A stretch of DNA of 64,000 nt from an uncultured bacterium. GTDB taxonomy: Bacteria > Omnitrophota > Omnitrophia > Omnitrophales > Aquincolibacteriaceae. Positions 48,137 to 55,123 of this stretch are shown here, in pieces. The DNA lies in NCBI GenBank assembly GCA_964385615.1, contig CAYLPP010000008.1, positions 31,150 through 95,149 of the forward strand, in the 5' to 3' direction. Numbering within the stretch: the stretch's first letter is position 1; the number at the start of each line of letters is the position of its first letter. The position numbers and the translations under genes were made by a program. The notes below the pieces were generated by a model. The model saw only the letters and a program-made list of their open reading frames with translations, was not told the origin of the DNA and ran no database searches.

Positions 48137-48382
48137 ATGTTCCGCGTTCTAATTCTTCTGGGCGAACCGGAAAAATCCCAAAACATTGTCTACGACGCTG
48201 AAGCCTCCAGTGTGTTTCTACCCGGAGCTGAGGGTGAATTCGAAATTCTCGACTTCCACAAACCTATTATGAGTTACCTGAAAGAGGGAACGATTGTGGT
48301 CGATAATGAGAAGGAGTTCAAAATCCGGGGCGGAGTGGTCAAAATGGGCGGTCAGAGCCTGGTCGCCATGGTGGAACGTTGA
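48137..48382 (+). CDS. atpC: F-type ATPase epsilon subunit, N-terminal beta-sandwich domain only (truncated, 81 aa)
   Basis: It aligns to the E. coli epsilon N-domain (GAEGEFEILDFHKPIMSYLKEGTIVV ~ [27 protein letters not shown]). The C-terminal helical hairpin is absent. Confidence 0.7.
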   Translation: MFRVLILLGEPEKSQNIVYDAEASSVFLPGAEGEFEILDFHKPIMSYLKEGTIVVDNEKEFKIRGGVVKMGGQSLVAMVER

Positions 48383-48591
48383 AAAACATTATCGTTATTG
48401 CCATTATGTTTATCGGAACGCTGGGGCCTTCCATGGTTATCGCGGCCGTGGGTTTTGCCAGCATCATGGCCCTGGGCCGTAATCCGTCGGCTTCACCCAA
48501 GATTATGCTGGCTATGATTATCGCTCTAATTTTCGCGGAAGCGATCGCCATTATCGCTCTGCTCGTCAGTTTTCAGGTGTTTACGCCATGA
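48379..48591 (+). CDS. atpE: F-type ATPase c subunit (proteolipid), H+-type
   Basis: A TTG start overlaps the atpC stop (TTGA). It forms a two-helix hairpin: Gly/Ala-rich helix 1, RNP polar loop (GRNPSASPK), and a conserved carboxylate in helix 2 (LIFAEAIAI). No Na+-site Q/ES/T residues are present. Confidence 0.75.
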   Translation: MKNIIVIAIMFIGTLGPSMVIAAVGFASIMALGRNPSASPKIMLAMIIALIFAEAIAIIALLVSFQVFTP

Positions 48592-48601
48592 GAGGAAATC
48601 T

Positions 48602-49351
48602 ATGATTGTGACGGTGATCGCGCTTCAGGGGATTATCTTTATCGTGCTGATTCTGGTTCTCCGCCATTTCATGAAGGGGAATCTGAGCGGAGCGATGGGA
48701 CACTTGCAGAAACTCAATGACGATCTCCTTAAACAGCAGGCGGAATTCAGGGAGAAATCCGCGGCTTCCCAAAAAGAATATGAAATGAAGCTTAACAAGC
48801 TTCAGCAGGATATTGCTTCCGAACAATCCCGCGCGCGGGAGGAAGCCAACAAGATGATTGAGGACACCAAGAAGCACGCTTTGGGAGAGCGTGAAAAAAT
48901 CATCAACGAAGCGGTGGAAACCCGCGAGAAAATGCGCAAGGAAATCATGAGTGAGATGGAGGAAAAGTCGATTCAGCACTCCAAAATCGTGATTTCTGAA
49001 TTTTTCAGCGGGGAATTGAAGACGCTCATTCACGAAGCGCTGATGGCCCAGGCTCTTGACGGACTTCAGAAAATTTCCATGGAGAATTTCCAGATTAAAG
49101 CTGATCAGGCGGCGGAATTACGGATCCCGGAACCGCTTAAGCCGGAAACCCGGGAAAAGATCCGAAAGCTTTTAAAAGAGAAGATTAAACGGGATGTAGA
49201 TCTTAAGGAAGAAACGGATCCGGCGCTGGTTGCCGGCATGATTATCCGGTTTGGAACTGTTGAAATTGACGGCAGTCTAACTAACCGCTTGAGTGAAGCC
49301 GCGGCCCGGCTGAAGAAAGAAAACGCCCGCCGCTATCAAGCAACGATCTAG
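48602..49351 (+). CDS. atpF: F-type ATPase b subunit fused to a delta (OSCP)-like C-terminal domain
   Basis: An N-terminal TM helix (IIFIVLILVL) and long charged helix are b-like. The C-terminal ...LVAGMIIRFGTVEIDGSLTNRLSEAA matches the delta/OSCP C-terminus (LIGGvvvrvGdkviDgSvrgrL). Confidence 0.65.
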   Translation: MIVTVIALQGIIFIVLILVLRHFMKGNLSGAMGHLQKLNDDLLKQQAEFREKSAASQKEYEMKLNKLQQDIASEQSRAREEANKMIEDTKKHALGEREKIINEAVETREKMRKEIMSEMEEKSIQHSKIVISEFFSGELKTLIHEALMAQALDGLQKISMENFQIKADQAAELRIPEPLKPETREKIRKLLKEKIKRDVDLKEETDPALVAGMIIRFGTVEIDGSLTNRLSEAAARLKKENARRYQATI

Positions 49352-49366
49352 TAACCGGGAGAAGGT

Positions 49367-51718: not shown

Positions 51719-51747
51719 TTGTGAAGTCTATGGGCATATGCTATATT
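51719..51747 (+). promoter_or_regulatory. Candidate sigma70-type promoter for the histidine kinase + atpD transcription unit
   Basis: TTGTGA (51719-51724), a 17-nt spacer, then TATATT (51742-51747), in the 146-nt gap after atpG. An AGAGGAA RBS lies 8 nt before the ATG at 51843. Confidence 0.4.
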
Positions 51748-51842
51748 TTCTTATACAGAGATTGACAAAGTTATTAAAAGATTAACTACGCAAAAAAACA
51801 GGAACTGTTCCATGGGTGTGTCACTAACCAGAGGAATTGTGC

Positions 51843-53711
51843 ATGGCATTTAATGCCATTCTTGTCTACCGGCTGGATTTAATTTTCTTCTTTCTTGTAT
51901 CCCTTCTGCTCATGGGTGCCGCCCATTGGATTCGTATTCGCCGGGGATCACGCCAGGGAATGCCGTTTTGGGTTTGGAGTATTTGGGCTCTTTTCATGGC
52001 AGCCTCTCTTTTTCTTGCTGAAAAATCCGGAATTGATGAAGAAAAACAGATTCTGGGAATGATCGAAGGCATGGCTCCCACTTACGCGGAGGAGATGAAA
52101 CGGCTTGGGCATGAAAAGATTTCTGTGGATACCCCGGCTGATGACCCCACTTACCTTTCTCTGATCGCGGCGGAAAAGAGCTGGCTTAAATCCAACCAGA
52201 TGGTCAGTGACATTTATACCTTCGGGAAAGACAAAGACGGGCGGGTTGTGCTGTTAGTGGATTCGGAAACCGATTACAACCGCAACGGAAAATACGATGA
52301 AGATCGTGAAGGCCGTACGGAGATCGGAGAACTTTTTCCTCAACAGGATGCCGTTGTTCTTAAGGCTTTGAACGGTGAGAAAAGTCTGGATTTGACGCCG
52401 TACTCAGACCGCTGGGGTACTTGGGTTAGTGTTTATTATCCGATGACGGATTCCCAGGGCCGTCCGCACGGCGCGCTGGGCGTGGATTACGCGGCGGAGG
52501 AATGGATCTCCGCTGTTTTGATGAACCGTATTACAGTCCTCGCGTTCGCGTTCATGGGAGTTTTGATTTTGATCGGTTACGGTTTGGCCGATTCGATTTT
52601 TCGTTCCAAGGATATTTATTTTAAGGCGCTGATCGAAAACGCGCTTGACGTGGTCACGGTTCTGGACACGCGCGGGCGCGTCATGTTTGAGAGCCCTTCG
52701 ATTCACACGGTGCTTGGTTATCTCCCTTCAGAGATGGTCGGCAAAATCGCTTTTGATTTTATTCATCCCGATGACTTGCCTGATGTCATCGAGGTGTTCG
52801 GAAAAGTTGTTAAAAGCGCCGGCGAAACTCACCGCGTTAAATTTCGGTTCCGGCATCAGGACGGCAGCTGGCGTTTTATGGAATCAGTGGCCACGAATCT
52901 GAGCCATAACCCGAACGTTAAAGGCGTGATCGTTAACTCAAGAGATATTACGGAGAGTAAGAGGGCTCAGGAAGAGCTTGAGGCCAGCCGGGTTATTTCC
53001 ATCCAGCAGTCCAAGATGGCCAGCTTGGGTGAAATGGCCAGCGGGATTGCCCATGAGATCAACACGCCTTTGGGGGTTATCACGGGCCGGGCTGAACAGA
53101 TGAAAAAGATTTTATCAGAAATGAAAGCGGATGCTTCCCTGACTCAGTGCGCGGAAGTTATTCGCGATATGTCCATGAGGATCGCGAAGATCGTGCGGAG
53201 TCTCCGGTCTTTTTCCCGGGACGCGTCAAAAGATCCTTTTGTCAGGACTCCGCTCCAAACGGTTATTGATGACGCGGTTTCTATTTCCATGGAAAAATTC
53301 AAAAATCACGGAATCGAATTGAATATCGAAAAAATTCCGGACACCGCTTTTGACTGCCGGGCCGCGGAAATCAGTCAGGTGCTGATCAACCTGCTGAGCA
53401 ACGCTTTTGACGCGGTTGAAAGCGCCCCGAAAGAAAAGAAGGTTTTGATTGCGGCTTCAGCGGATACTGATTTCATTACGATCCGTATCTCGGATACGGG
53501 GCCGGGAGTGGAAGCTGAGCTGAAGGAAAAAATTTTCGATCCATTTTTTACGACCAAACAGATTGGAAAGGGAACGGGGCTGGGGCTGAGTATTTGCCGG
53601 AGCATCGTTGAAGCTCACGGCGGGGAAATTTTTTACACATCAAGCGGCTCGGGAGCCTGTTTTACTTTGCGTCTGCCCAAGTGCCATGAACGCCAGGAAA
53701 GAGCGGCCTAG
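51843..53711 (+). CDS. Membrane sensor histidine kinase (2 TM + periplasmic sensor domain + PAS + HisKA + HATPase_c)
   Basis: TM helices flank a ~200-aa periplasmic region. The PAS domain is [32 protein letters not shown]...IHPDD. The H-box is [15 protein letters not shown], the N-box [12 protein letters not shown], and the G-boxes ISDTGPGV / [22 protein letters not shown]. An alternative TTG start lies at 51837. Confidence 0.85.
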
Positions 53712-53713
53712 CC

Positions 53714-55123
53714 ATGAGTGAAGAGCAAGTAAAAGGGAATATAGCGGGGAAAGTGATCGCGGTGCAGGGGCCTGTCATCGACGTTAAGTTCGAGAGCGCG
53801 GAAGCGGTGCCTGCCATCGATCACGTGCTTGAAACCCAAACTCGAGATGGGGCCAAGGTTGTCATGGAAGTGGCGGAGCATATTCCCGGAAATATCGCGC
53901 GGTGCATTTCCCTCAATTCCACGATCAGTCTTCAGCGTTACGCTTCTGCCAAACCGCTGGGCGCGGCCGTGCAGGTGCCGGTCGGCAATGAATGTTTCGG
54001 CCGTATTTTAAACGTGCTGGGCGATCCTTATGATAAAAAACCGCCTGTCGAATCTCAATCCCGCATGCCGATCCGCAAGAAGAAGGAAAGTCTCTACATG
54101 AATCCGGACGCGGCCGGCAGTAAATTTCAGGTGCTGGAAACCGGAATCAAAATTATCGATCTTCTCTTTCCCATGGTCAAAGGAAGTAAGTCGGGCGTGC
54201 TGGGAGGCGCCGGTATGGGGAAGTCGGTGCTGACCCTTGAATTGATTCACAATATCGCGACCCGGCATCAGGGAGCTTCCGTGTTTACCGGCGTGGGAGA
54301 GCGTATCCGCGAAGGAAACGAGCTTTATCATGAAATCAAGCACGCGGGTCTTCTCGATAAAGTTATTCTGATTTACGGGCAGATGAATGAGCCTCCCGGC
54401 GCGCGTTTCGGCGTCGTGAATACCGGGATTACGATGGCTGAAGAAATTCAGAAGCAGAATAAAGACGTCTTGTTTTTCGTGGACAATGTTTTCCGTTTCG
54501 TGCAGGCCGGCGCGGAAATTTCCACCCTGCTCGGCCGTGTTCCTTCTGAAACCGGGTATCAGCCGACGCTGGCCATGGAAGTCGCGGAGTTTCAGGAGCG
54601 CATCCGTTCCGTGCCGGGACGTGGTTCTATCACGGCCGTTGAAGCCGTTTACGTGCCGGCTGACGATTTGACGGACCCTTCCGTCGTGGCTATTTTCAGT
54701 TTCCTGGATTCCGTCATGGTGCTCTCACGCGAGCGTATTCAGCTGGGACTTTACCCGGCCATCGATCCTTTGCTTTCTTCTTCCGGCAACCTGGATCCGT
54801 TCATTACCGGGCAGAGGCATTTTGACATCGCTCAGGAAATCATCCGGATTTTTAACAAATACGATGAACTTCGCCGGATTGTGGCCGTTGTCGGCGTGGA
54901 TGAATTGTCGCGTGCCGACCGCACGCTTTTTGACCGTGCCCGCAAACTGCAGTTTTTTCTGACACAGCCGTTTTTCGTGGCCGAATCCTACTCAGGTATG
55001 AAGGGGGAATATGTCACGATCAAGCAGAACCTGGACAGCTGTGAAAGGATTATTGACGGGCGTGTCGATAAAATTGAAGAAAGTAAATTTTATATGATCG
55101 GTTCTGTGGAGAAATTATTATGA
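53714..55123 (+). CDS. atpD: F1 ATPase beta subunit (divergent), 2 nt downstream of the histidine kinase stop
   Basis: [19 protein letters not shown]...[16 protein letters not shown]...[24 protein letters not shown]...[34 protein letters not shown] aligns to canonical beta. The C-terminal [29 protein letters not shown] motif is also present. Confidence 0.9.

Follow-up and report, generated by a model that had tools for sequence, protein, structure and literature searches.

An F-type ATPase gene set without an a-subunit in a secretion operon of Omnitrophota, plausibly an accessory module driven by ATP hydrolysis

Omnitrophota are ultra-small bacteria, probably predatory or episymbiotic. Non-respiratory F-type ATPases have been described beside type IVa pilus (T4aP) genes in all classes of this phylum, within 10 kb of each other on 57 of 66 contigs, with alpha subunits that were likened to the Mycoplasma ATPases of types 2 and 3 and a subunit make-up that was not discussed (Seymour et al. 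2023, Nat Microbiol, PMC10066038). The source data of that study include a 94.6%-complete metagenome-assembled genome (MAG) in which KEGG orthology assignments exist for alpha and beta but a, b, c, gamma, delta and epsilon are without one (PMC10066038). Among 176 complete Omnitrophota genomes, a 2026 preprint found alpha and beta in 125 and gamma in only 30, which was read as an incomplete F1Fo, and it reports subunits of V/A-type ATPases for 70-99% of those Gorgyraeia genomes that do not belong to Pluralincolimonadales; loci resembling a type II secretion system (T2SS) have been reported beside Omnitrophota giant genes (West-Roberts et al. 2023). In Mycoplasma, the MIB-MIP surface system requires the F1-like ATPase of type 3, and type 2 has been proposed to drive gliding. 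The Mycoplasma cluster comprises seven genes, of which four resemble alpha, beta, gamma and epsilon and three are lineage-specific, two of the latter encoding proteins with 3 and 12 transmembrane (TM) helices; it has no c, b or delta (PMC3369863). Here we describe an F-type ATPase gene set at positions 48137-55123 of a 64,000-nucleotide (nt) stretch of contig CAYLPP010000008.1 from an uncultured Omnitrophota bacterium, this whole stretch being referred to as the window.

The window is a member of the locus type published in 2023, the 'symbiotic F-type ATPase/T4aP locus'. Like the sF-ATPase loci of Seymour et al., it stems from Omnitrophota (every named close homologue of its beta subunit belongs to Ca. 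Omnitrophica/Omnitrophota, and Omnitrophota MAGs are among the sources of the related loci), it carries alpha and beta beside GspE/PilB, GspF/PilC and pilin genes and near giant open reading frames (ORFs), and its alpha lies outside the respiratory clade, as judged from a neighbor-joining (NJ) sample that holds no Omnitrophota respiratory alpha. Absent from that study are the a-less set, the short epsilon, the b/delta fusion, a c subunit of variable carboxylate, a second alpha (alpha') without arginine finger and a kinase gene between gamma and beta.

All genes of the set are read from the + strand in the order epsilon-c-b/delta-alpha-gamma-kinase-beta, and Pfam searches bore out this composition, which a preliminary description of the window had proposed from the letters alone. 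The first gene (48137-48382) encodes an epsilon subunit of 81 amino acids (aa) that consists of the N-terminal beta-sandwich only (ATP-synt_DE_N, residues 15-75) and, as had been noticed, lacks the C-terminal helices. It overlaps by 4 nt with the gene for a 70-aa c subunit with two TM helices (48379-48591; ATP-synt_C). Next comes a 249-aa b/delta fusion (48602-49351), in which ATP-synt_B (residues 6-126) is followed by OSCP (residues 132-236), again in line with the delta/OSCP-like C-terminus proposed beforehand. The alpha gene (49367-50833) has the Walker A motif GDRMTGKTT and an intact arginine finger (SVSRIG), and its stop codon is overlapped by 1 nt by the ATG of a divergent gamma (50833-51696; Pfam ATP-synt, 90 bits). 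Beyond a spacer (51697-51836) and a membrane histidine kinase gene (51837-53711) lies beta (53714-55123), with Walker A GGAGMGKSV and intact catalytic motifs.

No a-subunit was detected in any ORF of the window, the giant ones included, by a hidden Markov model (HMM) for subunit a that we built from six canonical operons and ran unfiltered, and in Pfam each large ORF was otherwise assigned or unassigned, with no PF00119. Since epsilon and c overlap by 4 nt, there is no space between them for atpI, atpQ, atpR or a. The reported lack of an a-subunit, of atpI and of atpQ/R in the window was thus upheld. Likewise, the a-subunit is absent from all related loci, according to the Pfam lists of the annotated loci and to our HMM run over every ORF.

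These related loci cover beta identities of 58-96% and comprise 9 Pfam-annotated loci, 1 GTDB locus and 80 metagenome loci (gamma alignment), with synteny counted over loci of at least 6 kb from metagenomes and MAGs. About 45 loci share the order up322-epsilon-c-b/delta-alpha(-alpha')-gamma-beta-(MshEN)-GspE-GspF-pseudopilins, where up322 is the 322-aa protein encoded ahead of epsilon in the window, and a variant places alpha-alpha' ahead of epsilon. No more than 10 kb separates F-type alpha and beta from GspE/PilB-type genes in the window and in these ~45 loci, which also reproduce the placement of the cluster between giant-protein genes and secretion ATPase that had been described for the window. 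The a-less, epsilon-first, b/delta-fused layout is a conserved trait of an Omnitrophota family and no private rearrangement. This leaves the interpretation given in the preliminary description half right. One of its two readings, a sole ATP synthase operon that had been fragmented and re-wired, is not supported, since the layout is standard in a large Omnitrophota family and always sits inside a T2SS-like operon; the other, a specialised or regulated second type of F-ATPase, is supported by a conserved a-less family that has alpha and beta clades of its own.

The ATPase genes are all under purifying selection, with non-synonymous differences (pN) of 0.04-0.16 against saturated synonymous differences (pS). 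A second alpha in tandem is frequent (related loci are numbered with the prefix L: L002 3975-5558, L094 8527-10035, L095 8541-10019, L116 7212-8690). These alpha' copies retain Walker A and have lost the arginine finger (SVSRIG changed to SVSIIG or SLSIVG), and their position at the base of the family alpha clade suggests an old duplication with later loss in the window's lineage. Another locus (L086 7612-9999) carries alpha and gamma as one in-frame ORF of 795 aa, either a real fusion or an artefact of assembly or readthrough.

Alpha and beta pass the canonical NCBIfam cut-offs (alpha 557 versus 554 and 531 versus 484, beta 573 versus 463), whereas gamma, epsilon, c and b/delta fall far under theirs. 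The preliminary description had called the catalytic subunits divergent, a term that suits gamma (TIGR01146, 65 versus a cut-off of 194; best PDB match E. coli gamma, 37 bits) along with epsilon, c and b/delta, and needs qualifying for alpha and beta. To place the latter two, a reciprocally rooted NJ tree (numpy, 100 bootstraps) was computed from 23 beta and 30 alpha sequences of the family and 20 beta and 15 alpha canonical sequences from more than 10 lineages; the canonical loci came from a scan of genome contigs with beta, dominated by matches to the conserved motif IYGQMNEP (79 canonical atp loci against one of Omnitrophota), and served as outgroup and as the source of a-subunits. Family beta was monophyletic in 100 of 100 bootstraps and canonical beta in 98, and for alpha the corresponding values were 84 and 100. 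Identity between family and canonical sequences is 48% for beta and 42% for alpha, compared with 73% and 68% among canonical ones. Judged from this sample of sequences, alpha and beta are F-type and form a separate, long-branched lineage that is not nested in the ordinary clades. The preliminary description had suggested such a placement and had named, as one outcome that would speak against its interpretation, nesting in ordinary F-type clades combined with gene-order variants common in the lineage; there is no such nesting in the NJ tree, and the gene order is indeed common.

By its intact motifs, the F1 part is predicted to be catalytically competent, with the Walker A, GERxREG, Walker B and VPADD motifs of beta conserved in all family members and with Walker A and the arginine finger conserved in alpha. 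The DELSEED loop of beta, in turn, reads DELSRAD in the window and DELS[RKSA]xD across the family, and epsilon ORFs are 75-102 aa long family-wide, the C-terminal helical domain missing in every locus. In bacterial F1Fo, this epsilon domain inhibits ATP hydrolysis. A short epsilon everywhere together with a degraded DELSEED would thus fit a lost inhibition of ATP hydrolysis.

The c subunit is the best conserved of the small subunits, with 75-88% identity in most of the related loci that were compared and 51% in L004. Its polar loop, which faces gamma and epsilon, reads ALGRNPS without variation; this conservation argues that c still contacts the gamma/epsilon shaft. TM2 of the window's c carries a Glu within FAEAIA with no adjacent Ser or Thr, which fits an H+-type site, as had been concluded before. 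Across 39 distinct c sequences of the family, however, the position of this carboxylate is E in 32, Q in 6 (L004 6568-6780, L139, L140, L143, L145 and L166) and F in one (L136 6402-6620). To our knowledge, the TM2 carboxylate is universal in ion-coupled c-rings. The loci with Gln or Phe have intact catalytic motifs in alpha and beta, and the remainder of their c is intact as well.

The stalk, too, is of unusual build. The b/delta protein combines a single TM helix at its N-terminus with a coiled coil and, of delta/OSCP, the C-terminal half only, in which the motif AG..G..[IV]DGSL is conserved. Its best NCBIfam match is the b subunit of the alternate F1F0 (TIGR03321, 54 bits versus a cut-off of 225), and its matches in the PDB are delta, b and mycobacterial b-delta. 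For c and for the b part, the top PDB match is the F1Fo of Chloroflexus aurantiacus (9itj), at a low score of ~33 bits; that enzyme possesses a pair of peripheral stalks and two a-subunits. The window's alpha starts ~16 residues later than Erwinia alpha, a value that holds for the window only, ORF starts in the family having been called mechanically, which makes the offset unreliable there. In E. coli the N-terminal region of alpha binds delta. Attachment of the stalk probably differs from the canonical arrangement, as far as these primary structures indicate.

Taken together, the Gln and Phe variants of c, the lost epsilon domain, the selection on all genes and the intact F1 fit an ATPase that functions in hydrolysis mode and for which ion coupling is not obligatory; both a conventional ATP synthase and a decaying relic fit these family features poorly. 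Our preferred reading, to which we assign a probability of roughly 55%, is that the locus encodes the Omnitrophota accessory ('symbiotic') F-type ATPase, an ATP-hydrolysing, non-chemiosmotic rotary or mechanical module that serves the adjacent secretion/giant-protein apparatus, and that a proton-driven ATP synthase is less likely. Its parts would be an alpha3beta3 F1 head, a shaft of gamma and epsilon, a c-ring and one stalk made of the b/delta fusion, with no a. ATP hydrolysis would turn or flex the assembly of gamma, epsilon and c-ring, held by the one b/delta stalk, and the rotary work would serve the neighbouring pseudopilus/giant-protein apparatus. In the window's sub-lineage, the PAS kinase inserted between gamma and beta, which would have its own promoter-like element and be translationally coupled to beta, may act with the CheY-like regulator and the MshEN modules, which carry a motif for binding cyclic di-GMP (c-di-GMP), to put beta and the secretion genes under signal control. 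In this scheme, whose mechanism is drawn by analogy with the accessory F1-like ATPases of Mycoplasma and with FliI/FliH/FliJ, we infer the direction of catalysis, the absence of ion coupling, the physical or functional coupling to the secretion system and the pairing of kinase and regulator. More tentatively, a true rotary motor might have been repurposed from ion coupling to mechanical work on a T2SS-like machine of pseudopilus and giant-protein export; the c-ring would then be a membrane rotor or bearing, kinase, CheY-like regulator and c-di-GMP would gate the motor, and the whole would be an independent, F-type-looking counterpart of the evolution of the ATPase of type III secretion systems (T3SS) from a rotary ATPase.

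Several points weigh against the reading as an accessory hydrolase. Alpha and beta clear the canonical ATP synthase cut-offs of NCBIfam, and the T2SS part has its own ATPase, GspE, so that a second motor is not obviously needed. Retention of the Glu in the window's c and in 82% of the family members means that some selection for ion binding may persist. The absence of an a-subunit refers to the 64-kb window and the related loci, so that one may be encoded elsewhere in the genome, and the NJ tree, which is prone to long-branch effects, is free of N-ATPase, Mycoplasma and 'respiratory' Omnitrophota sequences. Finally, we know of no means by which a stator without subunit a could hold against a rotating c-ring.

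The best surviving alternative, though an unlikely one, is an ordinary chemiosmotic F1Fo ATP synthase with split genes: the gene for a (and perhaps atpI) would lie in another part of the genome, and the adjacency to secretion genes would be incidental or purely regulatory. It could draw on the Glu in the window's c, on the canonical scores of alpha and beta with all F1 motifs intact, and on the existence of split atp operons, most Melainabacteria loci scanned having beta with or without epsilon and neither alpha nor a nearby. Yet the a-less layout is kept tightly between the giant-protein module and GspE in ~45 deeply diverged loci, the c carboxylate has been lost in 7 of the 39 variants with no sign of decay, and nowhere in the family is there an epsilon C-terminal domain or a separate delta. 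In addition, alpha and beta stand outside the canonical clade, and published surveys split 'respiratory' from 'symbiotic' F-ATPases and report incomplete F1Fo sets from complete genomes.

Less probable again is a complex that lacks a and still translocates ions via an unrecognised stator, for which the TM helix of up322, GspF or the TM helix of b/delta would have to stand in. The strong conservation of c and the Glu kept in most lineages would agree with this, as would up322 (47098-48066, + strand), a protein predicted to be secreted or membrane-anchored and the immediate upstream neighbour of epsilon in almost all related loci. Its architecture is a beta-sandwich, a three-helix bundle and a conserved C-terminal TM helix ending in a basic residue, followed by a short tail. 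The window has it as an ORF of its own, 24 nt downstream of the gene for a 7545-aa giant protein; across the family, 37 ORFs with the up322-type module precede epsilon, the module often forming the tail of a giant ORF, and up322 is homologous to the last ~280 residues of the giants in L004, L084, L086, L135, L139, L148, L161 and L166. It has no Pfam or NCBIfam match. As a hidden a-subunit or a known secretion component it was discarded, an AlphaFold2 model (mean predicted local distance difference test, pLDDT, 76.7) finding no fold match in the PDB below an E value of 0.06. Besides this want of structural similarity, the cluster holds no membrane protein with several helices and a buried conserved Arg (GspF has 3 TM helices, the others 1), and obligatory ion coupling is hard to reconcile with a c that has Gln or Phe in some loci.

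Orthology to the type 2 or type 3 'F1-like X0' ATPases of Mycoplasma, by acquisition or by descent and with the same working, is improbable. That both are accessory F-type ATPases tied to surface machinery would suit this idea, and the alpha tree of Seymour et al. groups Omnitrophota alpha with Mycoplasma types 2 and 3 (PMC10066038). The window's alpha and beta, on the contrary, do not bear out the 'type 2/3 Mycoplasma-like' label in either HMM or PDB scores. Alpha reaches 384 against a cut-off of 600 with the MMOB1660 model and 297 against 520 with MSC_0619, compared with 557 and 531 for the two canonical atpA models, and beta reaches 425 against 850 (MMOB1670) and 397 against 570 (MSC_0618), compared with 573 for atpD. 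In the PDB, the beta of M. mobile G1 scores 347 bits and canonical betas score 404-489. The Mycoplasma clusters, moreover, lack c and b/delta, and their three lineage-specific proteins are not present here. A decaying, functionless remnant, which could appeal to the absence of a supposedly essential subunit and the divergence of gamma, epsilon, c and b/delta, is effectively refuted by ORFs that are intact in dozens of loci, pN far below saturated pS in every gene, invariant catalytic motifs and preserved gene overlaps and short gaps.

The kinase gene between gamma and beta sets the window's sub-lineage apart from the rest of the family. Its place and its domains are as first reported, while the length given, 624 aa, gives way to 622 aa in the database gene model, the start probably being ATG 51843, two codons in. 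The protein has 3 predicted TM helices and a ~170-aa extracytoplasmic domain, followed by PAS, HisKA and HATPase_c (Pfam; TM scan), with the H-box and the ATP-binding boxes intact. A homologue search recovered orthologues in L169, L170 and L171 (54-59% identity), all between gamma and beta, and these kinase-bearing relatives are also the window's closest (alpha 89-92% and beta ~90-96% identical, the beta of L171 being truncated). The kinase is absent from ~45 other loci, in which gamma and beta are adjacent. Its pN is 0.27-0.30 against saturated pS, and its GC content and third-position GC (GC3) resemble those of its neighbours, giving no compositional sign of recent foreign origin. By these comparisons the kinase is a lineage-specific addition, old and under selection, and not a defining feature of the system. 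A slightly more distant, kinase-less relative (L168) has an unrelated non-coding spacer of 417 nt (8373-8789) in the same slot, and insertions at the gamma-beta junction seem to have recurred in the window's sub-lineage.

As described previously, the beta ATG (53714) follows the kinase stop codon (TAG, 53709-53711) with a gap of 2 nt, and this junction measures 1-2 nt in the four kinase-bearing loci, where the spacer between gamma and kinase spans 120-171 nt. At 140 nt, the window's spacer is the widest intergenic gap from the giant gene to the response regulator, and from 47098 onward it is the sole exception to gene overlaps or gaps of at most 70 nt. The promoter-like site that had been noted at 51719-51747 is present (TTGTGA-17-TATATT with TG, a 9/12 match). 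Alone, such a match is weak, with 13 sites of this quality in 9 kb against 7.3 ± 2.5 expected; the -35 TTG and the extended -10 TGnTATATT are nevertheless invariant across the four kinase-bearing loci despite saturated synonymous sites. Located 3′ of this element, a block AAGTTATTAAAAG (51775-51790) is likewise conserved in all four and could be an operator or an element of the 5′ untranslated region. No intrinsic terminator was predicted after gamma, and Rfam, searched over 47-56 kb with the spacer included, gave neither a riboswitch nor any further known RNA. Probably the putative internal promoter drives beta and the secretion genes, and it appears reasonable, from this arrangement, to regard beta and the downstream secretion genes as tied to the kinase transcript.

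The operon ends with a stand-alone CheY-like response regulator (63220-63597, + strand; Pfam Response_reg, NCBIfam receiver-only matches), whose start was placed at an in-frame ATG 2 nt past the GspG stop codon. It is the likely partner of the kinase. L084, L086 and L168 also have a response regulator after GspG, and stand-alone receivers or kinase/receiver pairs occur elsewhere in L002 (668-1030, between epsilon and c), L166 (before GspE) and L140, and upstream of up322 in L116, L117 and L122. Several of these family members are unrelated to one another, and two-component parts thus appear to be recurrent guests of the ATPase module.

The entire window is a single co-oriented array of + strand genes. 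Upstream of up322 (204-47073) it encodes the secretin GspD, a TPR protein, a 5422-aa giant protein, a BamB-like and a beta-lactamase-like protein, three unannotated ORFs and the 7545-aa giant protein. Between the two giant genes, 19287-22255 holds a BamB/PQQ beta-propeller and a protein of the class-A beta-lactamase family. A 491-aa ORF (22275-23750) with 4-5 predicted TM helices, located between the beta-lactamase-like gene and the second giant gene, was rejected as a cryptic a-subunit, with no match to our a-subunit HMM, Pfam or NCBIfam; by eye only, we take it to resemble a GT-C-type glycosyltransferase.

Downstream of the ATPase genes, 58 nt after the beta stop codon, lies the gene for a stand-alone MshEN protein with a c-di-GMP-binding motif (55182-55607; Pfam MshEN, NCBIfam c-di-GMP_motif 71.6 versus 38 bits). 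A GspE/PilB-type secretion ATPase with an MshEN N-domain, which begins ~500 nt after beta, and the platform protein GspF follow (55622-58595), and then GspI, GspJ, GspK, a GspL-like PilM/PilN fusion, GspM/PilO and the major pseudopilin GspG (58579-63218). By Pfam, the complement of T2SS genes is present, with GspD, GspE, GspF, GspG, the minor pseudopilins I, J and K, and GspL/M. The GspE score of 580 lies below both the TIGR02533 cut-off (630) and that of PilB (676), so that either label, T2SS or T4aP, could apply. Both the N-terminus of GspE (55622-55800) and the stand-alone MshEN protein exceed the NCBIfam cut-off for the c-di-GMP-binding motif; the motif content of this part suggests that the secretion ATPase may be under c-di-GMP control.

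A common ancestry with protein-export ATPases is assumed for rotary ATPases, but living intermediates are scarce. In the family described here, F1, c-ring and stalk can still be recognised, whereas the subunit that forms the ion channel is gone, as is the ion-binding residue in some lineages, and the genes reside inside a secretion operon. The present analysis adds its explicit a-less composition, a c carboxylate that is dispensable, the second alpha (alpha'), scores that disagree with the Mycoplasma label, and a conserved variant with a kinase gene in the operon, which offers a handle on the regulation of the machine. Because of this module, genome surveys record an 'incomplete ATP synthase' for Omnitrophota, and recognising the module also avoids wrong metabolic inference.

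Compared with known systems, the set shares with canonical F1Fo (atpIBEFHAGDC) the subunits alpha, beta, gamma, c and b, the N-domain of epsilon and the C-domain of delta, as well as the order alpha-gamma-beta. It differs in having no a or atpI, in an epsilon that comes first and is short, in the fusion of b with half of delta, in the shortened N-terminus of alpha and the degraded DELSEED, and in the location of its genes inside a secretion operon. With the N-ATPase (atpDCQRBEFAG) it has in common the lack of a separate delta gene, a long b (~246 aa) and TIGR03321 as the top model for b/delta; unlike the N-ATPase, it has no atpQ, atpR or a, and beta comes last rather than first. The alternate F1F0 models, furthermore, score below their cut-offs and below the canonical models (alpha 500 versus 750, beta 509 versus 752, b 54 versus 225). 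Mycobacterial b-delta (PDB 9vkp_d, 8j0s_d) also joins b and delta in one polypeptide, yet it is ~445 aa long, contains a full delta and stands beside b' and a normal a, whereas the window's protein has 249 aa and the C-terminal part of delta.

In the export ATPase complex of flagella and T3SS, FliH is similar to a fusion of b and delta, and FliJ to gamma. FliI-FliH-FliJ thus resembles the window in placing an F1-related ATPase with a fused b/delta-like stalk at a protein export machine. FliI, however, is a homohexamer with no alpha/beta pair or c-ring, its partner is a T3SS and not a T2SS-like apparatus, and FliI/SctN models score 100-190 bits on the window's subunits against cut-offs of 380-700. 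The type 2 (gliding G1) and type 3 (MIB-MIP) ATPases of Mycoplasma likewise are accessory, occur in small-celled, host-dependent bacteria, are genetically associated with surface machinery and have no a; they hydrolyse ATP, as the Omnitrophota module probably does. Compared with them, the window has c and b/delta, has no 12-TM protein, and is closer in sequence to canonical F1. Should the Omnitrophota module indeed be a motor that hydrolyses ATP in the service of secretion, attachment or the display of giant proteins, it would be the second natural reuse of an F-type ATPase for surface machinery after Mycoplasma, and the first such ATPase to keep a c-ring.

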